In this document: positions 3,401 through 42,035 of the stretch, one piece after another | How the letters are laid out: every line of letters begins with the position of its first letter | Numbering within the stretch: position 1 is the stretch's first letter | Assembly (NCBI GenBank): GCA_017499595.2 | Contig: CM039001.1 | Location: 930,001-994,000, forward strand | Reading direction: 5' to 3' | Source of the DNA: Psilocybe cubensis | Lineage: Eukaryota | Length of the DNA stretch: 64,000 nt | Translations under genes and position numbers: made by a program | The notes under the pieces: generated by a model | The model's database searches: none | What the model saw: the letters and a program-made list of their open reading frames with translations, nothing else | Told to the model about the DNA's origin: nothing

Positions 3401-4697
3401 TATATTGCATAGTCTTCCATAATTGAAGAAGAATCTGTTGGTCGTGCACAAAATGTAAAAGGCTGTACCTGTATACGACGATTGGCTCCAAGAGCGACGC
3501 AGGAACAAAACGATTGAGCCAACTGGGTGCGAAAATCGTTCAGACCGAAGCCAACAGAAGACTGAAATAATTAAGATAAGACATGGTGGAGACCACAAGG
3601 AGACATTCGTATGTGTTTCAGCGTTCCAACGCTAAAAGTATCTTATCCACGAAGAAGGTGATCTCATCCCCTCCTTACCCTCTGGCTGCCCCGTACGACT
3701 GTTTATAGAGTGGTGCATCAATTAGCGTGAGCGTGAGGAATGAGTATGCAGAAAATAGACAAGGACAAGCCAAAACGAGAAGGACTGAGATTGACGCACC
3801 AAGAGGCTTGACCCAAGATCTTAAGAGGCATTTCTGGCAAGTCATTGTCGGTGACGTGATTGAAGTGTGTGAGAACCGGCAAGGGCGTCTATTTTTGCTC
3901 TAAATTCTTGGTTCCTGTGTGCGGGAAGGGCCATGGGAGACTTGAAGACGAGAATACCAGAAAGAAAAAATGGCGCAGGAAAATGTCGAAACGCGACGGG
4001 CATTGGGATAATATAAAATTGGCCGAACTGCCACCAGCTCATTGAGTTGGAAAGAATGTCGGAGTGACATGGAGTAAAATACTCGGATTCGCCAGGCTTC
4101 AAGTTCAAACGCATGGACAAAGAGTACAAGCACAAGGAAAGCCAGAATTAACGATGAATGAATGACAAATGGATAGGTGCCACAGTTGCTTTAAGGCTGT
4201 AGCTGCATTGGCGAAACGCAGAGCGAGCGCTAAATAGAGGTAGCTGAGAAAGAGATGCGAGTATCTTTTGAAAGAAGGATTAGAATTGTTTCAGGGATGT
4301 GGCTTGGTGTATTCAGATAGGACGCAGATAGACTAAGAGCGCCCAGGGAGGGATAGATGGAAGGAGAGTGGCATGGACAGTGGCAGCGACGGGGGCACAG
4401 CCAGAGGCAGCTGGGGTGTTACGGAGGAGCCGCGGTGATTGGTGGACCCAGAAGAACGGGACTGTTTGGGGATGTTTGGGACGGTCGCTGAGGGGAAGAG
4501 GGTGGCTGGGGGCCTGGAGAGTGGCAGAGAGTCGGGGGCCGGGAGAACCCCATATGGAAGGCAGATGGGATCTGATCGAGTGGTGGAGATTTGAGAGGAC
4601 TTCCTTATTAGGAGAGGGAAACCCTGGCGGTTCACATCCTCAGCCATTGAAAACGACAAACGGAAATTGCAGACAGGAAGCACTCCCTTGGCTCACC

Positions 4698-6334
4698 ATG
4701 GACTCTCTCTCCTTCGACGGCTACACAACCTACTCTGACGCCTCCACTCCCCGCACTCCCTCTCCCACCGACATGCACTTTGCCCCTGATTTCAAGCACG
4801 ACATAGACCACCCCGTCCAGAACATCTTCGCACCCACTGACGATGATAATGCAGGCGCTGTTGTTGTCCCACCATCCTCTGGCCCCTATTGGTCTCAGAA
4901 CTCCTCTACAAACACACACCCGTATGCCTTTAACAACACCAGCAACAACAGCTCCCGTGGCTCTCTGCTCCAGGAGCTCTACGAGTCCGACATCCCTGAG
5001 CAGTCCCTGTCTCCCAATTTCAGCCACCAGTCCGACAACTGGTCCCAGCAGCAGCAACAGCAGCAACAACAAAGGCCTTCAGAGTTTTCGATGATGCGTC
5101 GTGCCACTTTTCCCTATGTCCGACGCGACCACGAAGACGCGATGCCGATGCAGTACGTCCAGCAGCAGCAGCAGCAGATGCAGATGATGCACTTGCAGCA
5201 AATGCAGCACGGAAATGGTATGCAATATTCGCGCGGAGAGCATCTTTACAATGAACCCCACCACATGGACTCGGCCCACGATTTCATCCCATCCATGTCC
5301 AATTCTCCCCACTCCTCATACCGCGACTTTGACGATGGCGCAAACATCAAGCTCGAAGAGGGTGCGCCCCTTATGGTCCCCTCCCAGACCTCTTTCTACC
5401 GTCCCAATTCTTCTGGCGGTGTTTGTGGCTCCATGTCGCTGTCCTATCTTTCTCCCCATACAGGTCTTCCCGTCCAACACACTGACGATGCCGCTTCAAA
5501 AGAAACCCAGTATCTCCGTCGTCGATGCTTCAACTGCCACACAACCGAGCCCCCTTCATGGCGAAGGAGTACCCTTAACCCGGGCAAGATTGTATGCAAC
5601 AAGTGTGGTCTCTACGAGCGAACCCATCTGCGACCTAGACCTCTCCGTTTCGACGAGCTCCGAGCCGGTAACAAGGCACGCAAGCAAAGCAAAGCCACCA
5701 CTGGACCTAATCCAAGTGTCAGCCCAAAGCAGTCCAAGATGGTGAAGAAGGAACCCCGCGAGTATGGCACCGGTGCTCTTCTGAGGCGCAGTTCTGTATC
5801 CTCGTCAAGTTCTGTTCATTCTGGCAGCGGCGCAAGCGACTGGGATGATAATGGTGCGTTTTCGCGACATTGAATGCGTGGCGAACCGTGTTCTGATCTT
5901 GGGTTTCCTTCATAGTGTCCATTTACTCTTCTGGGTCAGCGCCCCCGACATCTTTCAACTCTCCTATCCAGCAAAGCTACCCATTGTCACGAAGCGACTC
6001 ACAGTCGCCTCCCCGCGACGGTGGAATCCGCCTCCCCAACAACCCTCTCTCTGACATCGCGTCGATGAACGTGTCTCATGGCCCACAAAGCCAGCTCCCA
6101 ACCCCCCGAAAATCACATACCTCACCTGGAGCATACTTTGCACCATCGCCGGCTCTCTCGCAAACCCAGGCACTGCCCGGAAGTCGAAGCGGCAGCGTGC
6201 ACGGCAGTCCTGCTGTTGGCCACTCACAGCTGCAGCTGCAAACACAACCTGACTTCTTTGGACCATCGGAGAACGCGTCGGCTGTGTCGAGTCCGGGACC
6301 AGTTGCCGCTGCAGTTCCTGCTCTATCGTCATGA
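4698..6334 (+). CDS. GATA-type zinc-finger transcription factor with polyQ tracts
   Basis: Finger CFNCHTTEPPSWRRSTLNPGKIVCNKCGLY (C-x2-C-x19-C-x2-C) followed by a basic tail. ATG in CACCATGG context at 4698. One intron, 5854-5915 (GTGCGT...CATAG), joins to the 5915..6334 frame. CAG/CAA runs near 5047 and 5160. Confidence 0.9.
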
Positions 6335-18045: not shown

Positions 18046-21000
18046 ATGGCCAAAGGATCGCAGCTATCACAGCTAAAAGCTGCTCTCAATAAAGCAGGGC
18101 TAACGGGACCTCCGAATAGCAAAAAAAGAAAGCGCGGTCAACCTCTAGAGAAAGACAAGGAGAAAAAAGCTGCAAAGCTCGAAGAGATCCACCAGCGTCT
18201 CAATCCTTTTGATGTCAAGGTCACAAAGTTGAAACACGATGTTGGAGGGAGAAGACTGAAGGGAATCACCGGAAGGCCTGCAAAAAGCAAGCAGGCTGAC
18301 CTTGATCAGGTACGCCAAGCGGTCGATTCCTTCTCTGGCCACCTTTACAATCAAATATCCTCAGCGCAAGAAAGTGTTGTTGAAGGAATATGAAGAAAAA
18401 GACAGAGCTGGTGGCATTGTCGATCGACGTTTCGGTGAAAATGATCCTACTATGAGCTTGGAAGAACGTATGCTGGAACGCTTCACCAAGGAGAGACAAC
18501 GGGCTTCGAAGGGAATGGCGTTCAATCTGGAGGACGAGGATGACCTCACACACTATGGTCAAAGTTTATCAAAAATGGACGACTTTGACGACGTTGGACT
18601 GGAAGAAGATAGCGACGAAGAAGATAAGCATGGTAAGGATGGAGTCTATTCCGACTAGTGCAATATAGTTATGTTGGTCTAGGTCAAATTGCCCGAGATG
18701 TTGTCAGTAGGACACATTTTGGCGGCTTTGGAGACGAACCGGAAGAAGAGGAAGAAGGGGTGCGTATAACCAATAGCTCAGTTAAGCCATTATTGACCTA
18801 TTCAACTTAGCCTGCGAGAAAGAAAACGAAGGCTGAGGTCATGGCCGAAGTAATGGCCAAAAGTAAAGAGCATAAAGTACTTTTCATCCCTCTCTTACTT
18901 ACATCAGGTAACTTACGTTTCATTGCACTAGATGCGCCGACAAATGGAACGCGACCAAGACGATAACATTCGTCACGAACTCGATAATCAATTTGCGGAT
19001 TTACGAGAACTAATTTTCGCGCCAGACCCTTCGTCTAGTGGTAGCAATATGATACCGCTTGGTGTACGAGAGGGGGGGCCATATCCCAAACCACCCGTTG
19101 ATGCCGAAACTGTAGTGACCAAACTGATTCCTACGGGCGAAGGCGATGATTATGACCAACACGTCCGAGAGTTGGCGTTTGACAAACGCGCCAAACCCAA
19201 AGATCGAACAAAGACAGAAGAGGAATTGGCATTGGAGGCAAAAGAAGCCTTGGAAAAGGCAGAAAGAAGGCGCCGAAGGCGTATGTTGGGTCTGGACGAA
19301 AGCGAAGACGAAGATGAAGGAGGAAAGGGAAAAGCGAAGCGGAAAAGAGGAGGAGACGACTTAGACGATGATTTCGACGATCCTAATGAAGACCTAAGTT
19401 TATTGGGACCAGGCCTCGGAGGTGAGGTTGCTGCGGATGAAGACGACGAAGAGGAAAGTGATGAGGATGAAGAAGAAGGTAGCGACGAAGGAGAGGAAGA
19501 AGAAGGATCGGATGAGGATGGTAATTCCGAGCTTGAAGGCTCAGATGAATCAGAAGGAGAGGAGGGAGATCATGAACAACTTGTTGCGCCTCGCAGAACA
19601 GCAAAAACAAAATCCAAGGGCAAAAAGAAGGCGAAGCAAGAACTACCTTTCACTTTTCCATGTCCCAGCAGTCACGAGGAATTCCTTGAAATCATTGAAG
19701 ACATTGACGACGACGATGTACCCGTAGTGGTGCAAAGAATACGTGCCTTGTATCATACAAGTCTAGCGGCTGATAATAAACTTAAGCTCCAGGTAGGCAA
19801 TTCCAAGTTTTCTAAAATACATTTCACATACTTTATCTGGTAACAGACATTCGCAACAATACTCATCGATCACGTCCTATATATTGCCTCTCCTCCAAAT
19901 CCCCGCTATTCCTTGATAACAGCTTTATTCCCTCACATCCTTGCCATAACGAAAGCATATCCTATTCCAATTGCCCGTCATTTCAACAGCAAACTAAATC
20001 TAATGCATAAAAACCTGAAACGAGGGCTTTCCCGTGGCCCTCTCGACCCTGATGCCAAAACATGGCCTGGAATTCCAGAGTTGTCTCTCCTACGATTAAT
20101 TGGACTTATCTGGCCGACCAGTGATCTCAACCACGCGGTTGTTTCCCCTACGCGACTTCTTTTAGGTGCATACCTTGGCTTGGGACGGGTGAGGACATTG
20201 CGCGATATTGCAAGTGGTTTGTTTTTGTCCACTCTGTTCCTGCAATACGAATCACTCTCGAAGCGACTTGTACCAGAAGTAATCAATTTCCTCCTAAATA
20301 CCGTTCTTTTCCTTGCACCGCATCCGTTTGAGCGCGTCACCGATCTTCCTGGCTCGTTCCCTTCACCCGACTTCCGATCAAAATTATGCCAAAAACTCGC
20401 CATGGATGCTAAAGTTAAAAAATCGCTCGTAGCCCGAAAGGCAAACTTGACGACACTTATGGAATCTGATGATTCAGACGAGCAGGCAAAGGCGGACTTG
20501 CTCTCGCTTTCCTTCGGATTACTTGGGGAATTTGCCGGTTTGTATAAAGGCCTTGATGGTTTCATTGAATTATATGAGCCTGTGTTAGCTGTCCTCGAAA
20601 ATCTTGATAGCAAACATCTTTTCGACGGCCACAAGGTAGAAATTTTACACATCTTCTTTTTCTTTACTTAATTTATTCTGCTACCCTAGACACAACTTGG
20701 GAAACTCGTTGACTCCCTTCAACGACTGCTCAAATTTTCACATCAAGCCAGAAAGCCGCTGTGTCTACAAGCACATAGGCCTATCCCTATCCCAACCTAC
20801 ATTCCCAAGTTTGAAACTACTACGTCGAACTACCTGCGCAGGCAAGATCCTGATCATGAAAAGAACCAGGCCTCCAAATTGCGCAACCAGTACAAACAGG
20901 AGAGGAAAGGCGCCATCAGAGAGCTGAGAAAAGACGCCAGATTCCTTGCAGGTGTGGAACAGAAGAAGCAGATTGAAAAGGATCGCGCATATAATGAACG

Positions 21001-21619: not shown

Positions 21620-30277
<8,658 letters not shown>

Positions 30278-30587
30278 TAGTGTAGTTTGTACTTATCGAC
30301 TTACATACATCATATGTTTCTTTTTCTAGTTGACTCGAGCGAAAAAAACAAATAGAATATCTTCGTCAACATGAATAAAAACTCCCGAAGATAAGATTAG
30401 ATGAATATACTGGTTAGGGACTCCGTCACAACTTCAACATCATCTCACGATCCTTATGTTGTCGGTTCCTATTTACGGTTCACTTCTACAGGAACTACGC
30501 AAATAGTTGCTGTCTCGCAGACATCTTCGTCGTCAATAAGCGACACAAGGCATAACCAATAAACCGTTGGTTGGCGCAGGTTCGGCT

Positions 30588-32590
30588 ATGGGCCGCAATC
30601 CACAAGACCTTGTTGGTAGTGGTGCAAATAGTGAGTCTCCGAACAAGTTGTGCGTGGACCCATTGTGAATTTTGTATTCCAGAAGATGACACGGCATCCT
30701 CAAATTTCAAGAATATACTGCACGTCGCCTGCTTTCCGAATTTGATTGAACCTCGTGAACATACCCCTTCAGATATATATTGCCGTATTCTATCGATGGC
30801 AGGGAATGGGTTTCCCTTTTGGCCAGGCTCTACTCCAATCCTACGAGAGCCGTATACTCGGCGAACGATTGAGGTTGGAGATGTCGGATATATAAACCAG
30901 ATGGGCAACTTCGAATTCGCATTCAATCTTTTCCTCCCCTCTGATGATCCCTTGAACCAATTCAACCGAAACAAACTTCCAGAAGGGTATGTCCCATTAG
31001 ATCCTCCTTATGAGTCTGAAATCTCCAGGATACCAGGTTACTATCCGCCTGGATCTGTCATTGCGACCAAAGGCATTGACGTTCATCGACTAGGTGAAAA
31101 CCCTCTGTATGTCATTTTCCGAATTTAAATCAAATTTATTCCACTCATTGAAACTAAACTTCGCAACAGTCACCTCAAATTTACTTCTTCGGAGCCAGAG
31201 GTGGCCGTCCTTGTCCTCCCTGATGGTGCCAGAAGAGAAGATTTAGCAACGTCCCGTGTACAGGAATATTTGAAGAAACACGCTGAAAACTGGATACAAT
31301 TCTTCACCGAAGAAAATGTTTTTCGTGCAATTCCGAATGGTGGTATATATGTTATTACTGGCATTGACAAAGCAGTATCATACTCAGCATCTACCTTTCC
31401 TGGACGAGGTTATGTGGGCAACAGACGCATATCTTTTGAATATGAACACAAATTTCGGCAACTCGGCCGCAAAACGGGTATCGCCTCATACAACTGGAAA
31501 ACTTCTGAGCGTGATACCGAAGAACGATGTTTATTTTTTCGTGGAATACGGATAGGACTCTCACACCCAGAGTGGAACCTGCGAATTGACGAAGTGCACC
31601 CCGATTCCACTCCCGTCTCGGTGTTGCCCCAAGCTCCTCCCATCTCGGACCAAATTCTGCCTGCAAAACAGGACGGCAAACCTATTCAACCTGGCAGCGA
31701 CAACTATAGTAAAGGACTGGATATCGATAGCCATGACAAAGAAAATCAGGATATCGATAGCCATGACGAAGAAAATCAAGATATCGATAGCGATGACGAA
31801 GAAAATCAGAATATCGATAGCGATGACGAAGAAATTCAGGATACCGAAATCCATGACGAAGAAAATCAGGATATCGATAGCGATGACGAAGAAAATCAGG
31901 ATATCGATAGTGATGACGAAGAAATTCAGGATCCCGTTGTGGATCCCATTGTCAAAGTCCAGAATGTACGTAGTATCCATCGCCGATTCAACTAAGTCTG
32001 AAATACCTTTAGTGTTCATTTCACCCATCGGACTTAATTCTCCAGATAATGCTTTCTCAGGTATGTTTGCTTATTGGAATTTTCGAATATTTTTGACTGA
32101 AGGGCTCCTTGTATCAGTACCCTGATGCCAAAGTTGCTCTTGTTGATGACTACATATGGTCGAACGCGATAAAGCATTCCCGAAAATCCGACGATCCGTT
32201 GACTTTTAAATGTTCCCAAGGAGCCTTCGTTGCGGATTGGGGATCCCTATTGGAAAACATCTTCAAGTCACATGAAATTGTTGAGAAAGATGGTGTGTTA
32301 TGACCTATGGTATTCTCATCCGATTCAATGTTAATAAAATTAAGGAATTCTGCTTCTTACTCCGCAACGGAAAAAAAGAATTTCCTGGGTGCGTGGCATG
32401 ATCTGAAGTGTGAAAAAACTTTTATTAAATATGTTTTCCTCAGATTTGGTTGCTTCGCAATATATGGAGCCGACTGAGGCCAAAGCGACTTGCAGTGGAA
32501 CCAGCTTGGGCATCAAATCTCATCCTGGATTTGATTCGTCAGGGTGAAGCTATTAAAGGATCAGACGAGATTTTTAAAATTTGTTACTAG
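30588..32590 (+). CDS. Uncharacterised GDVG-family protein, paralog A (possible gasdermin-like core, acidic repeats, FHPSD C-terminal domain)
   Basis: Seven-exon model with GT-AG introns (e.g. 30631-30682, 31107-31169, 31966-32012, 32061-32117). Motifs GFPFWP, IEVGDVG, FEFAFNLFLPSDDPLN, VLVLPDGA, HAENW, IYVITGIDKA, FHPSD. Splice sites are conserved in copies B and C. Confidence 0.75.
31720..31929 (+). repeat. Coding 30-bp tandem repeat x7 (DIDSxDEENQ)
   Basis: Seven units of GATATCGATAGCSATGACGAAGAAAATCAG. Confidence 0.95.
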
Positions 32591-32616
32591 TGGCTGCTTG
32601 GTGGTGGCTAACATAT

Positions 32617-32843
32617 GGAAATGCGGCAAACACGAGGATTGCTCAGTAATCCTTATCAACCTCATGGCGATCTACCATTTCAAGCAATTGGCATCCAGTT
32701 TCTGACTCCGCAGGTTGGTAAAGACAGCGCTAAGCAGGTATTGACAGGTACTTTGTCGAAGTGTGTATGTTCGTGGCAAGTGCTATTTTTGGCATCATAT
32801 GTCTTGGCAATGTTTGCCAAGCCCTATTCACTAGAAGTTACTA
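32617..32843 (+). repeat. Duplicated spacer segment (paralogous to ~56545-56771), split by the transposon insertion
   Basis: Near-identical to 56545-56771. Homology resumes at 49655 against 56770. Confidence 0.9.
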
Positions 32844-34939
32844 CACAGCCGGCCAGTTGGCGAGGTCTGAACCAAGTCACGGGGACTGCAGTCAAACCTT
32901 TGGCAAACCGGAGTTAAATCATAAAATGGTACCCATTGGAATTTCCAAGTCTTGGTGACTTGGTGTTGACCCATGTGGTCATGGGTTTACCGCATGTCCC
33001 TATGCGGCAGACTTCGGTTTTAAAACACAGAATTTTTGGAGTCTGCAAAGACTTGGAAATACCTGAGTTTAGCATTTCCTTTTCAAGCACTCGTTTTTTC
33101 GAGGGGTGCAGGCGTTATTGGGTGTAAAAATCTCGCTCGATACTGCAGTTTTATAGATACAGTGGTTGGAATAAAATAATACATGGTAAAATAGGTGGAA
33201 CACAAAAAAAAGAGTGTCTGAAAAAAGTAGAACTATCACCCAGTAATCGCTACTGTGGCCACCGGCTCCACTGTCCTGTTCTCCCTCAAGCATTCCAGCT
33301 GGCATGTACCCTCCTCCGTTGTACTATGTGACCTGTTCAAGAGCTAACTCAGACAACGCCGTATGAAGAATTTGTAAAGTACGTACCGCTCGGGGCTCTT
33401 GAGTGTGGTGCCCATCGTGCCACATCGACTCCATCGTATCCTCACAAAGCTAAGCACTAGATGTTCCTGTAATTTTGGTATCAGCACAAGCTCTGTATTC
33501 AAGCCAACCGACTTACTTTTTGGGGGAATTCTTGAGGAAGGAAAGACAAGGAAATACACAAAACAAAGAATGAGGCCACAGACCGGCCATTGTTTCCCAA
33601 AAAAACCCTGCACTGCTCAGTGCACTCCTACAAATCAGGAGGTCAGATCTTTCTGACATGCACGGGTTTCACGCCAGCATTGAGCGTGTCTCAGAAAAAG
33701 CCTAGTCAAGGGCGAACAGTGCCATTGACAGAGGCAAAAAAGTGAGGGAATGGCAGAGACTTCGACGTCGGGTGACAACCGTTGACACACGATAATTCCC
33801 GAAACTTGGCATTTGTTGCCAAACAGATGTCAACTTGCATTGTGCTCAGGGGCCAAAATATCAGGAATTCAAGCCGTTGAAAGATATTGATTCAATTAAA
33901 TACAAGCTGGTACATCTACTCATTTGTAGCTTGAGAATTAAGAATGACCGCAAGCCAGTTATCATTCACAACATAACTTTCTGGGGTACCTTGCGTATTG
34001 GAGGCTTGAAGAAAAGGGTTTGAGGACGTGTGGACAAGGGGGTTAGACGGTGGGGCGGGTGATGGTGTGGTGGGTCTAGAAACTGTCGTTGACGACAGCA
34101 GCGTTGTCTTAGACGCATGTTTGTTGAACTTTAGGTCATCTTGTAGGAGCGATTCCTCAATAAATCTGTGATATATGTTAGAAAAGTTCACATAGAAAAA
34201 GGTGGGACTCACTCTCTCCATTGTGAAGATGTAAAGTCGGAACCCCATTCCAAAATACGAGTGGCAAACCATGAGTCTACCTGCGCCCAGTAATCGTTGC
34301 CGTCAGACACCCGTCCAGATGTCATCCCTTTGTTGTGCAGGGTCTTTCTTTTCTTCCCCATGATGGTATCGCATGGGCTGCCGGTTGGGCTCTCATCAAC
34401 GGTGTCAAAAGCGTCGTCGGCTTCGGGAACAGATTCATCTTGATCCCCTAGTCGTCCAACGTTTTCCCAATGGAAGCGACGCTTATCCCATCTCAGTACT
34501 AGTTCCAAAACAAAAGAGGACTTGAACTCACAAGAATTACAAAACGAATTAGATATGTCTGCTCGGAATGATGGCCTTCTCCTGTAACCCCAAGACGATA
34601 TCGAGTGATCATTTGTGAGGTGAATTGTTGCACAGTGCACTTCTTTCGGCCAGCGAGGCCGTCTCGTATCTGCACAAACGGATGATCAGTCAAAATCACA
34701 GAGGCACAGTTGAGTCATGACGTTACCTCTTTTCTGAACGTATTCCGTACCGCAGAGCATTGTCTGCGAGCTTCGGCTGACCATGCATCTTCACGACGGG
34801 GGCGGTTGATGCCAAAAACGTTGTCCATGGTATAGGCGGATGGTTTGGCCCTCATTTTTTTCTGTTTGGAAGCATAAGAACATACACCGAGTAATAAAAA
34901 GATACACCTACCTCCATGTCCGTAATCAAATTAACCTTG

Positions 34940-35389
34940 TGTCAGGGTTTCTCCAGTTTCCCCTCTTTATCTTCACAGAATTATCTTATTCTTTCATTAT
35001 CTTATCAATTATCTGATTAGATAGTTTATTTCTTTCATCACAGCCTTCTTGCTCCACTTCTTTCTAGTAAATTCTATATGATTCCTAGTCTTACTCATCC
35101 TTTTTCTATATGATGTCACTTTTATTCTTTAACCTTCCTTTATGATGTAATGTAGGGAATATTCTAGAATAGCTGTAGAGTATAAATACTGGACTTGTAG
35201 GTAGCTGTAGCTTCAGCTTCAATCTCTTAGGATATCCACTATCATTGGTGTGATCTCTTAGAACCATTGAATCTCTCTCACTCTCTTATTCTCTCTTTGC
35301 TCTTTTACTCTCCCTCTGCTCTTTCTCTCTCTCTCTTGCTTAATCTTTGTTGGTGGCCTTGTCACACTGATTATAGTGTTGCCCTGACA
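34940..35389 (+). repeat. 5' LTR
   Basis: Identical by eye to 40869-41318. TATAAATA at 35181. Confidence 0.97.
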
Positions 35390-35880
35390 GAAGATTGAAG
35401 CTCTCTCAAGACAACTCCACCATCTCTCTTTCAACACCAAACTCTTCACCTCTTCAACCTCTTCAACACCATTACCTCAACCTTCTTCCTCCACTTCCAA
35501 CCCACCAACCTCTTCATCAACCTCTTCACCAATCTTCTTACCAATCTCTACATCTCCACCAATCTTCAACATCCTCCTCAAGACCTTTCCTCAAGACCTT
35601 TGGCTCATCATCTTTCCTACTCTCTGTTGTGTGCTGTGTGTGAACTTAGTAGATAGGGATACCAACTGTTGGGGCAGACACAGTCCTACTAGTGTTCTGT
35701 TTTTGGTGGTCTAGGAAATATCCAGTAACCCTGTGATCCTAGGTTTAGAGCCCTGAGTGGTGTGACAACTGGGTATCCAGTAGATAGATATTTTTTTAGA
35801 ATACTTAGTATAGTTTCAAGGGCACTTTCAGTAGATAGCTTCTCCCACACACACATCAGAGAGCCTACCTACTCCTACCC

Positions 35881-36990
35881 ATGGACATGGACCCCTCCCA
35901 ATTGCCTCCCACCACTCCTTCTGTGGAAGAGCTCATGCATCAGGTCCAGCTCCTTACCCAAGAGTTGAATTTTCTTAGACAGCAGCAGCAGTCATTATCC
36001 ACTCCACCACACCCTCAGCAACCAGTCAGTCAGTCACCATCACCACCACCACCACCACCACCTGCTGCTCTAGATATTCACTCTTTCCCTACCCCTCATG
36101 TTGCCCCTTCCTGTTCACACTCTGCCATTAAAGTCTCACCTCCAGATCCATTTGATGGTTCTATGGAGAAGGCAGAAAACTTCCTCAGTCAGCTTAAATT
36201 ATATTTCTATGGGAAAGGGATTACAGATGACTTTCAGAAAGTTATTTGTGCTCTATCTCATATGAAAGGAGGTACTGCTGGGAAGTGGGCATATGAGAAG
36301 ACTAAAGTAATAGACAATGCTCAGTCCCAAGAAGGTCTTTGGGCTGACTTTGTTTATGAATTTAGGGAAGTGTTTGCAGATCCAGACCCCTCCAACACAG
36401 CTAAGCATAAAATGCACATGCTCAAGCAAGGCAGACAGACTGCTGATGAGTATGTTGCTAGCTTCAGGGCTCTGATCTCAGATACTGGGTATAATGATGC
36501 TGCTTTGGTAGACCAATTCAAGGCTGGGCTTAATGAAAATCTCAGGAATGCAGTCTACTATGTTCCTGACATGCCCAAAACCTTGGATGGATGGATTAAA
36601 TGGAGTACCAGGCTAGATAGGCAGTGGAGACAGAGTGAGGCCTTTACCAAGTCTCTTTCCTCCTCCTCTTCTTCTCCCTTCCTTAAAGCCCCAACTCCCA
36701 AGGCTGTTCCTAAGCCTACTCCAAATCCTCCAGTCTTTTCCAATAGCAGCTCTAGGACCTTTGGTGCTCAGGCAAAGCAACCAGATGTAGTTCCCATGGA
36801 GGTTGACTCTGGATGGAAGTCAGTTAGGCCAATTGTTTGCTTCAAGTGCAGAAAGCCTGGTCATAAGGCTGTAAACTGCAGGTCATCAGTTAACATCAAT
36901 GCTATGACCCATGAAGAACTGGCTGACTACTTTGGGAAATTAATCTTGGAAGGCAAGGAGCAGAAAGATGAGGAAAAGAAAAATTTTTAG
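35881..36990 (+). CDS. gag: Gag (retrotransposon capsid plus CCHC zinc knuckle)
   Basis: PDPFDG and LKQGRQTADEY motifs, VPMEVD, CFKCRKPGHKAVNC. Confidence 0.95.
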   Translation: MDMDPSQLPPTTPSVEELMHQVQLLTQELNFLRQQQQSLSTPPHPQQPVSQSPSPPPPPPPAALDIHSFPTPHVAPSCSHSAIKVSPPDPFDGSMEKAENFLSQLKLYFYGKGITDDFQKVICALSHMKGGTAGKWAYEKTKVIDNAQSQEGLWADFVYEFREVFADPDPSNTAKHKMHMLKQGRQTADEYVASFRALISDTGYNDAALVDQFKAGLNENLRNAVYYVPDMPKTLDGWIKWSTRLDRQWRQSEAFTKSLSSSSSSPFLKAPTPKAVPKPTPNPPVFSNSSSRTFGAQAKQPDVVPMEVDSGWKSVRPIVCFKCRKPGHKAVNCRSSVNINAMTHEELADYFGKLILEGKEQKDEEKKNF

Positions 36991-39900
36991 AAGCACCATT
37001 GGTGAAAGACATGTCCCAATGGAATAGATTTAATGTACTAGAAAATGAAATTGACAGACTTGATCCTCAGTCTTCAGATTCTGGTGCAGAAATCATGTCT
37101 TCTTCTTCCTCTCTTTCTACCTTCCCTGAAAAGATCTACATCCTCAACCATAATCCTAAAACCTCTACCCATTTGTCTGTCATCTTAAAGACAATGGACA
37201 CAGAGAAAAGGTTATCTGTTGATGCTTTGCTTGATTCTGGAGCTACTGGCCTCTTTCTGCATTCTGGTTTTGTGAAGTATCATAATCTCAACACAAGGAA
37301 ACTTCCTAGAGCCATTCCAGTCTATAATGTTGATGGTACTCTCAACAAGAGTGGCTCTATCCATGAGGAAGTAGACTTAATTATGGTACACAAAAACCAT
37401 ACAGAAAGGGCCACCTTTGCTGTTTGTGACTTGGGAGACAAATCTGCTATCATTGGACATACTTGGCTTTGGCACCATAATCCAGATGTTGATTGGAAGA
37501 CAGGGGATGTCCAGTTTATTAGATGTCCCTCTGACTGCCAAATGGAAGCCAAAAGAGCCAGAAGAAAGAGGCAGAAAATAGCTGCAGTCAAAAGGAGGAA
37601 ACTCCCTCAATTTGATGAAGAAGAAGATGATTCTATTGAAGATTCTTCTGATTCTGAGATTGAGCCTGAGGATAGAATTTTTATCTCATACCTTCATCCT
37701 CAGAAGCAGTCTATTAATGCTACTTCTACTATGTCTCAAAGATTAGCAGAAGAGTCTCATCAGCAAGCTGATTCCCCTAAGAAAACCTTTGAAGAAACTG
37801 TTCCTAAACACTATCATCAGTTTAAAGGTGTTTTTTCAAAGGAATCTTTTGATAGGCTACCAGACAGAAAGCCTTGGGATCATGCTATTGAGCTGAAACC
37901 TGGTTCTGAACCTTACAGATCCAAGATTTATCCTCTTTCTCCCAATGAACAAAAGGAACTTGATGCCTTTTTAGAGGAAAATCTGAAGTCTGGCAGGATT
38001 AGACCCTCCAAGTCACCTATGGCCTCCCCTGTATTCTTTGTCAAGAAGAAGGATGGATCTCTTAGGCTTGTCCAGGACTATAGGAAACTGAATGAAATGA
38101 CCATCAAGAACTCCTACCCCCTTCCATTGATTTCTGACATCATCACCAAACTCAGCAAAGCCAAATACTTCACCAAACTTGATGTTAGGTGGGGATTTAA
38201 TAATGTCAGAATCAAAAAGGGAGATGAATGGAAAGCAGCCTTTAGAACCAATAGAGGGCTGTTTGAACCATTGGTCATGTTCTTTGGTTTAACCAATAGT
38301 CCTGCTACCTTCCAAACTATGATGAATGATATCTTTATTGAGCTCATTGATGGAAATGTTGTCATTGTCTACATGGATGACATTTTAATTTTCACTGAGA
38401 CTCTTGATCATCATAGAGAGGTAGTCAAGCAAGTTCTGCAAATCTTAGAACAGAACAAACTCTACCTTAAAGCAGAGAAATGTGAATTTGAAAAGGAAAA
38501 GATTGAATATCTTGGACTAATCATTTCACAAGGCAGGATTGAGATGGATCCTGTCAAGGTAGAGGGAGTTTCTAAATGGCCTGAACCTGAAAATGTCAAG
38601 GATGTCCAATCATTCTTGGGATTTGTTAATTTTTATAGAAGGTTCATAGAGGATTTTGCAGACATTGCTAAGCCCCTTCATGAATTGACAAAGAAAGGAA
38701 CAGTCTGGAGATGGAGTCTTAGACAGCAGGAAGCCTTTGACCAGTTAAAGAAGAAAGTCACTTCTTCACCTGTCTTGATTTTCCCTGATGATAACAAGCC
38801 ATATAAAGTTGAAGCAGACAGTTCAGATTATGCTACTGGGGCTGTTTTATCTCAGGAAGGATCAGATGGGAAATGGCATCCTGTAGCCTTTATGTCTAAG
38901 AGTCTATCTGAAGTAGAAAGGAATTATGAGATCCATGACAAAGAGATGCTGGCTATTATCAGAGCACTAGATGAATGGAGACATTATCTTGAAGGAACCC
39001 AACATTCCTTTGAGATTTGGACAGACCACAAAAACTTAGAGTACTTTATGGTTGCCCAAAAGCTCAGCAGAAGGCAAGCCAGATGGTCACTCTTCCTGTC
39101 CAGATTTGATTTTACTCTTCATCATAGGCCTGGTAAAAGATCTCTTAAGCCAGATGCTTTGTCTAGGAGACCAGATCATAAAAAGGGAGAGAATGATAAC
39201 CAAAATGTAGTTCTCCTCAAACCTTCCTACTTTAAAATCCAGGCTCTCAAGCAGGGTCATGCTACCATTACTGGTGCAGAAAATGATCTTCTTAAGAAGA
39301 TTAGAGAAGCTAAGGAGATGGATGAAAAGGTGGTCAAGGCAGTTCAGGAGCTCAAGAAATCTTCTACCAAGAAGATTGAAGGACAGGAGTGGTCAGAAGA
39401 ACAAGGCCTTATTCTCTACAGGGGGAAGGTGTATGTTCCCAAGGACAAAGATCTTAGAAGAAAGATTGTGGAACTGCACCATGATGCCTTCATTGCTGGA
39501 CATCCAGGGAAATGGAAGACAATTGAGCTAGTCTCTAGGAATTATTGGTGGCCAGGAATGTCACATTTTATTGCAGCCTATACCAGAGGTTGTGATAGAT
39601 GTAACAGAACCAAAACCTTTCCAGCCAAACCTCTTGGCCTTTTAATTCCTACTGAGATTCCCTCTGATGTCTGGCAATGCATCTCTGTGGACTTTATTAT
39701 GGGGTTACCAGAATGTCAAGGGTATAATGCCATTATGGTGGTTGTGGATAGACTTAGTAAAATGATCCACATTATCCCTACTACAGATGAAGTCACTTCT
39801 GAAGGGACAGCCAGACTATACAGAGATTATGTCTGGAAACACCATGGCTTACCCATTAAAATTCTGTGTGATAGAGGTCCACAGTTTGTCTCAAGGTTTA

Positions 39901-40868
39901 TGAAAGAACTCAACTCAATACTTGGTATCCAGACAGCCTCATCTACAGCCTACCATCCCCAAACTGATGGTCAGACTGAAAGAGTTAACCAAGAAATTGA
40001 GCAGTATCTTAGACTCTTTATAAACCATAGACAAGATGATTGGGTTGAATGGTTAGCTCTAGCTGAATTCTCTTATAACAATAGAGTTCAGGCTTCAACC
40101 AGGCAGACACCATTCATGCTCAATAATGGCAGACATCCCAGAATGGGCACTGAACCCCTTAGAAATAGTAAAATGGACACTGTGGATACCTTTGTGAAAA
40201 ATATGGAAGAAGCCAGGAAAGAAGCAGAGTCTGCACTTAGAAAAGCTGCTGATGATATGGCTAAATTCTATAATAGACACAGAGGTACTCCAACTCAGTA
40301 CAAAGTTGGGGATTTGGTATGGTTAGATGGCAAGGACCTCAAAACTGATAGGCCCTCCAAGAAATTGGATGATAAAAGATATGGGCCTTACAAAATTACC
40401 AAAGTTATTAGCCCTAATGCCTATGAGCTTAAGCTGCCATCTACCATGAAAATCCATCCAGTGTTCAATGTGGTTAAACTTCTACCTTATCACCCAGATA
40501 TTGTAGGAAGAAAGCCTCCTTCTAGACCACCACCTGTCATTCAAGGAGAAAATCCTGAGTGGGAAGTTGAATTTATCAAGGACAGCAGACTTTTTAGAAA
40601 CAAACTTCAATATTTGGTTAAGTGGAAGAACTATCCTAATGAGGAATGCACTTGGGAGCCTGCAGAGCATTTGAAAAATGCTTCTAAGGCTATCAAGGAC
40701 TTCCATGCCAAACATCCTTCAGCACCTAGAAGGATTTCTGCTGTGACCTTTGATAGACTTTCTTTCACTCCTATTATTAACTTTACTGAACCTCCTCCTC
40801 TTCTTAAACCCTCTAAACTAACCCATCCATGTGCACATTGTGGAAAATGTGCCTTAGAGAGGGGGTGA
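36987..40868 (+). CDS. pol: Pol (protease-RT-RNase H-integrase-chromodomain), -1 frame relative to gag
   Basis: LLDSGAT, YMDDILI, EADSSDYATGAVL, HHCC zinc finger, HPQTDGQTER, GPY, chromodomain EWEVEFIKDSR...YLVKWKNYPNEECTWEP. Confidence 0.97.
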   Translation, partial: LEAPLVKDMSQWNRFNVLENEIDRLDPQSSDSGAEIMSSSSSLSTFPEKIYILNHNPKTSTHLSVILKTMDTEKRLSVDALLDSGATGLFLHSGFVKYHNLNTRKLPRAIPVYNVDGTLNKSGSIHEEVDLIMVHKNHTERATFAVCDLGDKSAIIGHTWLWHHNPDVDWKTGDVQFIRCPSDCQMEAKRARRKRQKIAAVKRRKLPQFDEEEDDSIEDSSDSEIEPEDRIFISYLHPQKQSINATSTMSQRLAEESHQQADSPKKTFEETVPKHYHQFKGVFSKESFDRLPDRKPWDHAIELKPGSEPYRSKIYPLSPNEQKELDAFLEENLKSGRIRPSKSPMASPVFFVKKKDGSLRLVQDYRKLNEMTIKNSYPLPLISDIITKLSKAKYFTKLDVRWGFNNVRIKKGDEWKAAFRTNRGLFEPLVMFFGLTNSPATFQTMMNDIFIELIDGNVVIVYMDDILIFTETLDHHREVVKQVLQILEQNKLYLKAEKCEFEKEKIEYLGLIISQGRIEMDPVKVEGVSKWPEPENVKDVQSFLGFVNFYRRFIEDFADIAKPLHELTKKGTVWRWSLRQQEAFDQLKKKVTSSPVLIFPDDNKPYKVEADSSDYATGAVLSQEGSDGKWHPVAFMSKSLSEVERNYEIHDKEMLAIIRALDEWRHYLEGTQHSFEIWTDHKNLEYFMVAQKLSRRQARWSLFLSRFDFTLHHRPGKRSLKPDALSRRPDHKKGENDNQNVVLLKPSYFKIQALKQGHATITGAENDLLKKIREAKEMDEKVVKAVQELKKSSTKKIEGQEWSEEQGLILYRGKVYVPKDKDLRRKIVELHHDAFIAGHPGKWKTIELVSRNYWWPGMSHFIAAYTRGCDRCNRTKTFPAKPLGLLIPTEIPSDVWQCISVDFIMGLPECQGYNAIMVVVDRLSKMIHIIPTTDEVTSEGTARLYRDYVWKHHGLPIKILCDRGPQFVSRFMKELNSILGIQTASSTAYHPQTDGQTERVNQEIEQYLRLFINHRQDDWVEWLALAEFSYNNRVQASTRQTPFMLNNGRHPRMGTEPLRNSKMDTVDTFVKNMEEARKEAESALRKAADDMAKFYNRHRGTPTQYKVGDLVWLDGKDLKTDRPSKKLDDKRYGPYKITKVISPNAYELKLPSTMKIHPVFNVVKLLPYHPDIVGRKPPSRPPPVIQGENPEWEVEFIKDSRLFRNKLQYLVKWKNYPNEECTWEPAEHLKNASKAIKDFHAKHPSAPRRISAVTFDRLSFTPIINFTEPPPLLKPSKLTHPCAHCGKCALERG

Positions 40869-41318
40869 TGTCAGGGTTTCTCCAGTTTCCCCTCTTTATC
40901 TTCACAGAATTATCTTATTCTTTCATTATCTTATCAATTATCTGATTAGATAGTTTATTTCTTTCATCACAGCCTTCTTGCTCCACTTCTTTCTAGTAAA
41001 TTCTATATGATTCCTAGTCTTACTCATCCTTTTTCTATATGATGTCACTTTTATTCTTTAACCTTCCTTTATGATGTAATGTAGGGAATATTCTAGAATA
41101 GCTGTAGAGTATAAATACTGGACTTGTAGGTAGCTGTAGCTTCAGCTTCAATCTCTTAGGATATCCACTATCATTGGTGTGATCTCTTAGAACCATTGAA
41201 TCTCTCTCACTCTCTTATTCTCTCTTTGCTCTTTTACTCTCCCTCTGCTCTTTCTCTCTCTCTCTTGCTTAATCTTTGTTGGTGGCCTTGTCACACTGAT
41301 TATAGTGTTGCCCTGACA
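40869..41318 (+). repeat. 3' LTR
   Basis: Copy of 34940-35389, followed by TSD CCTTG. Confidence 0.97.
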
Positions 41319-42035
41319 CCTTGTAGCATGTTCGCGTAGGCGATATAACCAGTTGCTGAGCCAGGTGTCTTATAGTAGCCTGCCAGTAGTTGATCAGTTT
41401 AGAGAATACACCACACGACCACACCGCAACCTTTTGGTTTGGAGATAAAGCAAAGCCGTTGTCCAAACGAACGGATATGTCTGCGACAACACCCTTTAGT
41501 TCGGCAATTACTGACTCATACTCGTGTAGCTGGGTGGCTTGAAGCTGGCTCCGAGACTCGATTGCCAGTATGTGTGCTAAAATGAGCATCCAGCACATCA
41601 TATTGGGTTGACTGAGGGAAGCTGAGGGCGAGGAGGTTCCAATCTAAGGCTAGTCAGATTCTACACAAGCTCACAAAGATAAAGACACACCTGATAAAGC
41701 CCGAGAAGGTGGCTTCTGCTTTGTTCTGAAATGCCAACCCTTTGAATGAGGGTGTCGATGAACAAAACAACCCAGGGCTCAAGTTGTTCACCAGGAGACG
41801 CCATTGAAATGCACGCTTGTACGGGATTTTGGTGGGTGCTGCACGGACACAGTAAGGAGCGGTTGTCGCAACTGCATCCTACCTTTATACCCCGCGAAAA
41901 AGCAGTGCTGCATTTTTGGATTCAACAAACCCGTCGCGTCGCGTCCTGTGCAAAGGCATGCAAATAATCGCCCTCGTGAAAACATAAAAATGAAATTCAA
42001 AGCCAAGAAGAATACGCACGGTACCCCCCGCCACC

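Follow-up and report, generated by a model that had tools for sequence, protein, structure and literature searches.

How can a retrotransposon with open reading frames and identical long terminal repeats (LTRs) be entirely without CpG dinucleotides while the DNA on both sides of it has them in ordinary number? The question arises from a 64,000-nucleotide stretch of Psilocybe cubensis DNA (hereafter the window), in which a preliminary description, made from the letters, had seen no CG in the LTRs, gag or pol of one element, arginine always encoded by AGA or AGG, and CpG-rich flanks. Our counts bear these observations out. Between positions 34940 and 41318 there are 0 CpG in 6379 bp (GC 0.41), where base composition would predict 266 and the CpG density found elsewhere in the window 300. 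The nearest CG to the left of the element stands at 34921 and the nearest to the right at 41333, which leaves a CpG-free gap of 6412 bp, the second-longest in the window being 148 bp. Counted in 1-kb bins, the six bins of 35001-41000 hold 0 CpG and the remaining 58 hold 27-91. The observed/expected ratio of CpG (CpG o/e) is 0.89 and 0.85 in the 5-kb flanks, which is ordinary rather than exceptional, and the element's value of 0 is not comparable to either.

By its sequence, the element reads as a complete, autonomous and recently integrated Ty3/Gypsy chromovirus, an LTR retrotransposon of an agaric fungus host, with the following parts:

34935-34939, no strand: left target-site duplication (TSD), CCTTG, 5 bp
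34940-35389, plus strand: 5' LTR, 450 bp, TG..CA ends, 0 CpG against 13.3 expected
35181-35188, plus strand: TATAAATA box within the LTR (TATA box), some 27-34 nt 5' of where transcription putatively begins
35215-35225, plus strand: AGCTTCAATCT, putative transcript start (5' end); self-primer, complementary to the primer-binding site
35392-35402, plus strand: primer-binding site AGATTGAAGCT, 2 nt past the 5' LTR, suggestive of Tf1-type self-priming
35881-36990, plus strand: gag, 369 aa, with Ty3_capsid, Retrotrans_gag and a CCHC zinc knuckle by domain matches
36981-36987, plus strand: slippery heptamer A_AAT_TTT, immediately 5' of the gag stop TAG (36988-36990), a probable frameshift site for the -1 frame of pol
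36972-40868, plus strand: pol frame, with protease DSG, RT YMDD, RNase H, integrase zinc and core domains, SH3_Tf2-1 and chromodomain; first ATG at 37011
40856-40865, plus strand: polypurine tract AGAGAGGGGG, 3 nt 5' of the 3' LTR
40869-41318, plus strand: 3' LTR, same sequence as the 5' LTR
41319-41323, no strand: right TSD, CCTTG

The intactness that had been claimed for the element is confirmed, as the two LTRs match at 450/450 positions, with TG..CA ends and CCTTG on each side, and neither the gag ORF (369 aa) nor that of pol (1285 aa counted from the ATG, in a 1298-aa frame open from 36972) is interrupted. Gag is matched by Ty3_capsid (3e-10), Retrotrans_gag (3.5e-09) and zf-CCHC (3.3e-04; 21.0 bits, the cutoff being 20.8). 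In pol, the order is PR-RT-RNaseH-INT, with the integrase after the RT as in Ty3/Gypsy: a protease, weakly matched at residues 69-153 and bearing the DSG motif, RVT_1 at 344-505, RT_RNaseH at 593-699, Integrase_H2C2 at 812-869, rve at 889-983 and, at the integrase C-terminus, a chromodomain (PF00385 Chromo, 2.5e-15, residues 1184-1233). The 11 nt at 35215-35225 are complementary to those at 35392-35402, and the MFE and centroid folds both pair the two segments (z -2.27), the transcription start being putative. A frameshift-stimulating structure was looked for 3' of the heptamer, where the fold does not stand out from shuffles (z -1.17); a gene broken by the insertion was looked for across the reconstructed empty site, where the only spanning ORF, of 135 aa on the minus strand, is uninformative. 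The sequence is present, whole or in part, in 16 runs from 8 studies, and the listing of runs for the element includes no RNA run. Run X14, which is only guessed to be RNA, gave 6 short contigs.

The total lack of one dinucleotide is just what design would give, and an assembly artefact, contamination or engineered CpG-free DNA therefore has to be weighed. Such an origin is hard to reconcile with a TSD of 5 bp that is perfect and lies in a fungal locus, with canonical retroelement anatomy, with the 16 runs of 8 studies, and with copies 83-87% alike that exist elsewhere; we consider its probability practically negligible. Chance is excluded as well. Synonymous shuffles that kept the element's own CpG-free codon set contained 88.1 +/- 6.7 CpG (minimum 69 in 1000 shuffles), and the non-coding part (LTR and leader, 941 bp), with 0 CpG, gave a mean of 34.0 on mononucleotide shuffling (minimum 21, again in 1000). 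Because C-ending codons stand 0/476 times before G-starting codons and 308/1178 times before others, the avoidance is context-dependent and is enforced at the dinucleotide level, not through codon bias. The arginine codons (n = 90) comprise 57 AGA, 33 AGG and 0 CGN.

What, then, removed the CpGs? One answer is passive erosion: the host methylated the CpGs, 5mC deamination turned them into TpG in a MIP-like or RIP-like manner, and purifying selection at the protein level kept the ORFs, in which case the CpG-lessness would be a scar left by defence rather than an adaptation. Signatures of CpG-to-TpG change are published for basidiomycete TEs (PMC4352252; Clutterbuck 2017 as cited in PMC11451569). 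The relatives of the element allow this answer to be judged. Its nearest protein relatives have 84-70% identity, the named ones all belong to Agaricales, and the named homologues in Lyophyllum shimeji, annotated 'retrotransposable element Tf2', have 55-57%. The scan of genome contigs yielded no close relatives and the IMG/VR scans only relatives of 33-52% identity, or none; a metagenome scan gave relatives with 42-69% identity among the matches listed.

Across the 91 relatives whose DNA was fetched, CpG o/e ranges from 0.14 to 1.22, none is CpG-free, and CpG o/e falls as TpG/CpA o/e rises (r = -0.75), which indicates that the same erosive process has acted on them. The eight loci with an ORF of at least 1000 aa have CpG o/e of 0.70-1.22; 44 of the 55 relatives of at least 4.5 kb have a longest ORF below 600 aa (median CpG o/e 0.55), and those with CpG o/e of at most 0.42 have longest ORFs of at most 530 aa. 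Among relatives, low CpG accompanies broken ORFs and TpG/CpA excess, and the intact ones are CpG-replete. The element, however, combines intactness with an o/e of 0, and for TpG/CpA it falls short of the decay trend of the 91 relatives by 1.9 residual SD. With TpG o/e of 1.22 and CpA of 1.14, against 1.16-1.19 and 1.12-1.18 in the flanks, its TpG/CpA excess is no greater than theirs, and the hallmark of a CpG-eroded TE is absent. As for the comparison with other family copies that had been suggested, the contrast stands against the 91 fetched relatives, and of the family itself one copy was readable in full.

The codons point the same way. At arginine positions common with the relatives, these have CGN 1453 times and AGR 774 times and the element has AGR at 90/90; the step from CGN to AGR requires transversions, whereas deamination of CGN yields stop, Cys, Trp, His or Gln codons. 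Opposite NCG codons of the relatives, NCT is commoner in the element than NCA or NCC, in line with its own codon usage, and no footprint of deamination is left. At the relatives' C|G codon boundaries the element mostly has T|G (2221/4711); that this is the commonest replacement speaks for erosion, and yet it fits a deamination history or simple synonymous choice alike. Furthermore, the CpG count is exactly zero rather than a few, and a random substitution would bring a CpG back in about 14% of cases, therefore zero requires continued removal. In run X13, none of the 40 listed differences from copies 83-87% alike (all 40 from that run, out of 273 in total) adds a CpG, where 4.1 would be expected (P ~0.009). 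Taking both sides together, we hold that passive erosion is an unlikely origin of the CpG-free state.

A second possibility is a pressure at the RNA level, by which CpG would be avoided in the genomic RNA or mRNA, e.g., on account of a CpG-sensing RNA-binding restriction factor, RNA stability or translation, and which would resemble the CpG suppression of some RNA viruses and HIV-1. Because the genomic RNA includes all parts of the element, both LTR halves among them, the uniform absence over LTR, leader and ORFs fits this possibility equally well, and DNA-level and RNA-level pressure are inseparable by sequence alone because every base of an LTR retrotransposon passes through RNA. Against it, the intact relatives of the superfamily tolerate CpG o/e of 0.70-1.22, the known CpG-specific system of Basidiomycota acts on DNA, and to our knowledge there is no fungal CpG-RNA sensor; we find a pressure of this kind quite improbable. 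Very improbable, in our judgement, is also a compositional relic, i.e., a family that arose in an extremely CpG-suppressed donor genome, or reached its host from one by recent horizontal transfer, so that the present host's defences would play no part. Near-identical sequence does occur in runs under several coded organism labels (A-E, word shares 0.75-0.90), but these labels may be strains of one species, and the named relatives are all from Agaricales. The remaining dinucleotide biases of the element also agree with those of the family (GpC 0.80 vs 0.75 +/- 0.06, GA 1.29 vs 1.29, TC 1.21 vs 1.21), and we know of no genome with zero CpG.

We therefore favour, as rather probable on these comparisons, that the lineage was recoded under selection, which would have left CpG-specific methylation and deamination without a substrate. 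The whole sequence, including the promoter LTR, the leader, gag and pol, would have been recoded to zero CpG over evolutionary time. In basidiomycetes 5mC is mostly CpG and located in TEs, and LTR/Gypsy families of Pleurotus are 26-59% methylated and repressed (PMC6191308 and PMC13297926). Since methylation in Basidiomycota is largely confined to CpG and methylated CpGs decay to TpG/CpA, a CpG-free element would offer methyltransferases no site. It would be spared transcriptional silencing by 5mC, methylation spreading from heterochromatin, which is the probable target of its chromodomain integrase, and the decay caused by 5mC deamination. Such selection would presuppose that the host methylates CpG in TEs and that CpG-lessness brings the element an advantage; it also implies that the element may be expressed and mobile. 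The lack of CpG gives no protection against RNAi or histone-based silencing. Beyond selective recoding as such, we put forward tentatively, and with slightly less than even confidence, that complete and heritable CpG-lessness is a stealth adaptation of an agaric LTR retrotransposon lineage against CpG-restricted DNA methylation, that purifying selection would act against each new CpG across subfamilies at least 13-17% divergent in nucleotides, and that the lineage would thereby stay active in the methylated heterochromatin targeted by its chromodomain integrase. The earlier proposal that the lineage purged its CpGs while staying active is consistent with the context-dependent codon choice and with relatives that are CpG-replete when intact and decayed when CpG-poor, and it is from these that we infer it.

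The preliminary description had also placed the element inside a TET-bearing transposon. A paralogous empty site supports the nesting, and the surroundings comprise:

32846 to about 49658, no strand: 16.8-kb insertion, a putative DNA transposon that holds the retrotransposon, the TET/JBP gene and a minus-strand ORF block; paralogous empty site at 56773/56774 in the window
43362-45047, plus strand: TET/JBP-family dioxygenase gene, HRD..H..R residues present, CpG o/e 0.97, CpG-rich as described
45089-49442, minus strand: block of long ORFs (P0123, P0124 and further ones) without Pfam match, possibly encoding a transposase; CpG o/e 0.67

Judging by homologues and a structural model, the gene at 43362-45047 is a real TET/JBP gene. 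Over residues 1-510 it is 90-97% identical to a Psilocybe cubensis protein of 510 aa; P0127 contains HRD, SHSN and ERASF (the HxD...H iron ligands and the 2-oxoglutarate-binding Arg), and in alignment A2 the columns H380, D382, H433 and R444 are invariant or nearly so. Pfam Tet_JBP (PF12851) is matched by 9 of 25 family members (best 7.3e-07), with a precomputed match on 3 of 116 homologues. The window's own TET-gene ORFs gave no Pfam match at E up to 10 and the PDB sequence and profile searches no TET match, the family being reached only through homologues and fold. The AlphaFold model, which was made for the homologue P0130 (90-97% identity to the exons in the window) and not for the window's own protein, has pLDDT 75 and pTM 0.70 and matches CcTet (8.8e-11), NgTET1 (3e-09) and TET2 (3e-06). 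For the transposase of the insertion, there was no Pfam match and the Atlas gave only unnamed basidiomycete clusters, and no similarity to a Plavaka-carrying protein was found. Among the Atlas matches of the minus-strand block, DUF6830 occurs on 19% of one cluster. Kyakuja has a 7-bp TSD and 5'-CA..TG-3' termini without TIRs (PMC12730594); a Kyakuja (KDZ) identity was rejected for the insertion, which has CA at its start but no TG at its end and has only 3-4 bases, (T)ACA, common to its borders. The gene and the retrotransposon lie 2 kb apart within the same insertion, which had been read as a stack of two opposite escape strategies. No result points to an interaction between them, and nested transposons are ordinary; we let this part go as narrative only.

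We found no published description of a CpG-free fungal retrotransposon in a literature search that covered subscription journals thinly, so an earlier report is possible; in a 2026 review of fungal methylation, the terms 'CpG depletion', 'evade', 'escape' and 'CpG-poor' do not occur. The chief transcriptional brake on transposons of Basidiomycota is considered to be CpG methylation, and the known counter-measures are either enzymatic (transposon-borne TET/JBP) or limited to a promoter (ONSEN). If our reading is true, an autonomous element without any methylatable site would take substrate removal to its limit. One genome with both CpG-bearing and CpG-free Gypsy families would then offer a natural negative control, by which the share of 5mC in TE silencing, heterochromatin spreading and mutational decay could be gauged against that of RNAi and histone marks. 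The element also shows that CpG o/e is not simply readable as the age or decay of a TE.

Among known systems, the element most resembles in anatomy the Tf1/sushi-type chromoviruses (Metaviridae), with which it has in common TG..CA LTRs, a 5-bp TSD, a CCHC gag, the order PR-RT-RNaseH-INT, SH3_Tf2-1 and a C-terminal chromodomain. Its 11-nt primer-binding site is complementary to the presumed start of the transcript, as in the self-priming of Tf1, a mechanism reportedly worked out in the Levin laboratory. It differs from the type in having no CpG, and from Tf1, which has a single ORF, in that a -1 slippery site links gag and pol, each of which has a frame of its own. With the CpG-eroded TEs of basidiomycetes it has the depleted dinucleotide in common. 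Hosts of such TEs have CpG-directed DNMT1/Masc2-class and DNMT5 enzymes (PMC4352252, PMC13297926), and CG-deficient TEs are also reported by Horns 2012 (PMC3318451) and by Clutterbuck 2017 as cited in PMC11451569. Those, however, are mutated copies with a C-to-T bias, whereas the present element is coding-intact, with identical LTRs and without TpG/CpA excess. Another parallel is ONSEN, a retrotransposon that lacks symmetric sites for maintenance methylation and escapes stable silencing (PMC3907296). There the absence is reported for an LTR promoter of about 440 bp, and here it extends over all 6.4 kb, 1655 codons included; as the fungal host would methylate almost only CpG, the loss of substrate would be near total. 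According to PMC12730594, no TET-carrying retrotransposons are known, and it is in fungal DNA transposons that carry TET/JBP (Kyakuja, Plavaka and others) that mobile elements have an anti-methylation strategy of the other kind, in which the mark is removed enzymatically, whereas in the element described here it would be the substrate that is removed.

The element, a Ty3/Gypsy chromovirus LTR retrotransposon at 34940-41318 with a GC content of 0.41, contains no CpG in its 6379 bp, against 266 expected from its base composition and 300 at the CpG density of the other 57,621 bp of the window. The preliminary description had claimed a lack of CpG in LTRs, gag and pol between CpG-rich flanks, and both points are borne out by counting, the CpG observed/expected ratio (o/e) being 0.89 and 0.85 in the 5-kb flanks versus 0 in the element. 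The nearest CG dinucleotides lie at 34921 on the left and 41333 on the right, leaving a CpG-free gap of 6412 bp (the second-largest in the window is 148 bp), so that the borders of the CpG-free zone lie 19 and 15 bp beyond those of the element. Counted in 1-kb bins, CpG is missing from all six of 35001-41000 and numbers 27-91 in each of the remaining 58.

This absence is enforced rather than incidental. AGA and AGG account for all 90 of the element's Arg codons, just as had been read by eye, no NCG codon is used, and C-ending codons number 0/476 before a G-starting codon versus 308/1178 (26%) before others. Synonymous shuffles that kept the element's own codon set gave 88.1 +/- 6.7 CpG (minimum 69 in 1000 shuffles), and the 941 non-coding bp (LTR and leader) likewise contain none versus about 34 expected (shuffle minimum 21 in 1000). 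The compensating dinucleotide excess is spread over AG (1.38), CT (1.38), TG (1.22) and CA (1.14).

The following features make up the element:

34940-35389 and 40869-41318: LTRs with TG..CA ends
Both sides of the element: target-site duplication CCTTG
35392-35402: candidate primer-binding site (PBS) AGATTGAAGCT, exact complement of AGCTTCAATCT at 35215-35225
35881-36990: gag, 369 aa, with Ty3_capsid, Retrotrans_gag and a CCHC knuckle
36972-40868: open pol frame, first ATG at 37011, with RVT_1, RT_RNaseH, Integrase_H2C2, rve, SH3_Tf2-1 and Chromo
36981-36987: slippery heptamer A_AAT_TTT in the gag/pol overlap, immediately 5' of the gag stop codon, pol being in the -1 frame
Ending 3 nt upstream of the 3' LTR: polypurine tract AGAGAGGGGG

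The open reading frames and identical LTRs (450/450 positions) agree with the preliminary description, and LTR identity together with the intact target-site duplication would point to a recent insertion. The pol protease gives a weak domain match and carries a DSG motif, which, with YMDD and the zinc-binding and acidic integrase residues, forms invariant columns in an alignment with 29 homologues. Downstream of the heptamer, the RNA fold did not differ from shuffles as regards a frameshift-stimulating structure. No tRNA-type PBS was found after the 5' LTR; AGCTTCAATCT lies 27-34 nt past a TATAAATA box within the LTR, and the MFE and centroid folds of 35215-35410 both pair the AGATTGAAGCT and AGCTTCAATCT ends, with an extended stem (z -2.27). 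This pairing of the candidate PBS with the putative 5' end of the RNA would correspond to the arrangement of Tf1-type self-priming.

A protein search with the element returned 4234 matches at E <= 0.001 (7998 candidates scored), the nearest being 84-85% identical and the named ones the 'Tf2' proteins of Lyophyllum shimeji (55-57%). CpG was compared in relatives more distant than the 84-85% identical proteins, namely at least 80 metagenome contigs (42-69% identity) and 11 IMG/VR contigs. The IMG/VR loci (L081-L091) are fungal Ty3/Gypsy retrotransposons filed in a viral collection; several of them are strongly CpG-eroded (o/e 0.14-0.25 in L087-L089), with ORFs split into pieces of at most 530 aa.

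None of the 91 fetched relatives is CpG-free (o/e 0.14-1.22), and in the first 82 of them CpG-free runs reach at most 949 bp. Where an ORF extends to 1000 aa or beyond (eight loci), o/e is 0.70-1.22. Among the 55 loci that span at least 4.5 kb, the longest ORF stays below 600 aa in 44 (median o/e 0.55), and at the lowest-CpG loci (0.14-0.42) the longest ORF does not exceed 530 aa. In this superfamily, therefore, CpG loss usually goes with decay, and intact elements are well supplied with CpG. The present element is the exception, being intact at an o/e of 0. Over the 91 loci, mean TpG/CpA o/e falls as CpG o/e rises (r = -0.75), and the element lies 1.9 residual SD under that decay trend. At Arg positions common to both, the relatives have 1453 CGN and 774 AGR codons, and opposite their NCG codons NCT is the element's commonest choice, ahead of NCA and NCC, as in its own codon usage; NCA, expected from deamination, does not lead (these counts are pooled across overlapping relatives and so are not independent). 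Passive erosion, with selection at the protein level only, is the main rival account and an unlikely one, given a CpG count of exactly zero, the transversions that Arg codons would require, the lack of a TpG/CpA excess, and the broken ORFs that accompany erosion in the relatives.

According to excerpts of published work, basidiomycete 5mC is mainly at CpG, concentrated in transposable elements (TEs) and kept up by DNMT1-RFD and DNMT5 (PMC13297926), LTR/Gypsy families of Pleurotus ostreatus are 26-59% methylated and repressed (PMC6191308), and basidiomycete TE copies bear CpG-to-TpG signatures (PMC4352252). In the present window, the CpG o/e of 0.67 in a minus-strand ORF block beside the element, versus 1.07 in Nop14, fits mild TE erosion in the host. 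A Nop14 exon is 80% identical to that of Psilocybe cyanescens and less so to other Agaricales, which places the host among the agarics, close to Psilocybe; the host genes around the repeat-rich region encode a GATA zinc-finger protein (4332-5873), Nop14 (18932-20671), an ATR-type PI3K-like kinase (24020-29700) and, on the minus strand, a YEATS-domain protein (60253-60837).

The best-supported reading, which we hold to be probable, is that the lineage was recoded under selection, leaving CpG-specific methylation and the ensuing deamination without a substrate. Since the RNA of the element contains all of its bases, pressure against CpG at the RNA level would also be compatible with the sequence; we regard it as quite improbable. 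Chromodomains of chromoviruses are associated with integration into heterochromatin. The element's chromodomain would suggest integration there, where freedom from CpG would matter most.

The element, or part of its sequence, is present in 16 runs from 8 studies, and 11 of the 16 contain 50% or more of the words sampled from it. Contigs of four runs were compared with it; in one, X13, high-depth contigs are 83-87% alike to the element. These pol-like contigs have a word depth of about 3000 versus 2-6 for the near-identical copy; that sample may contain a related subfamily in extremely high numbers. Among the 40 listed of 273 differences (all X13), none creates a CpG, versus 4.1 expected for changes of these kinds (P ~0.009), and one site shows a CA-to-TG double change of which the A>G step alone would create a CpG. 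In a family free of constraint, roughly 14% of all substitutions would be expected to create one. From these 40 differences there is modest evidence that the diverged subfamily is likewise CpG-free.

The surroundings of the element are as follows:

30432-32845, 52019-54444 and 57675-60108: three copies of a 2.4-kb unit, 90-94% alike, with long ORFs and CpG o/e 0.97-0.99
32846 to about 49658: 16.8-kb insertion containing the retrotransposon, the TET gene and the minus-strand ORF block
43362-45047: TET/JBP-family dioxygenase (TET) gene

The insertion is delimited by an uninterrupted paralogous site, 56703-56900 being the counterpart of 32775-32845 joined to 49655 onwards (empty site 56773/56774); its borders share only (T)ACA, and the two sites also differ by 34 bp at 49723-49756. 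ORFs of the 2.4-kb unit had no Pfam match, and in each unit an acidic D/E-rich peptide repeat is encoded by a tandem repeat of 30 bp, present in 7 copies at 31689-31962.

No window ORF matched Pfam Tet_JBP, and PDB sequence searches with the TET gene gave no TET match. Despite this, the claim of a TET gene is upheld through homologues and a model of one of them. ORF 44412-45047 has HRD...H...R and falls among basidiomycete 2OG-dioxygenase clusters in the Atlas, 21 of 30 matches being in a set whose exemplar cluster has PF12851 on 12% of members. By tblastn, the product of 43362-45047 is 90-97% identical to residues 1-510 of a 510-aa Psilocybe cubensis protein, Tet_JBP is matched in 9 of 25 aligned family members (best 7.3e-07), and the model of this 510-aa homologue (pLDDT 75) matches CcTet (8.8e-11), NgTET1 and TET2. 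The N-terminal low-confidence part holds a 105-bp tandem duplication (43624-43723 / 43729-43828, 88% identical) whose product is a repeated Ser/Pro-rich peptide ending KKRKR. Psilocybe cubensis has at least six paralogues of the protein, and in two Trametes homologues a Plavaka transposase domain (PF18759) is fused or adjacent.

The preliminary description had seen two opposite escape strategies stacked at one locus; the empty site sustains nesting in a TET-bearing insertion, and the co-location is evidence of nesting and not of cooperation. No transposase family was identified for the insertion. It begins with CA but has no terminal TG and no match to the 7-bp target-site duplication, in contrast to Kyakuja, for which PMC12730594 reports such a duplication and CA..TG termini; the same paper states that no TET-carrying retrotransposons are known. 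In the literature covered, which included a 2026 review and a minority of subscription journals, no wholly CpG-free intact fungal retrotransposon is described. What is already known, as far as these sources go, is the CpG erosion of fungal TEs and, in ONSEN, an LTR promoter free of CG and CHG (PMC3907296).
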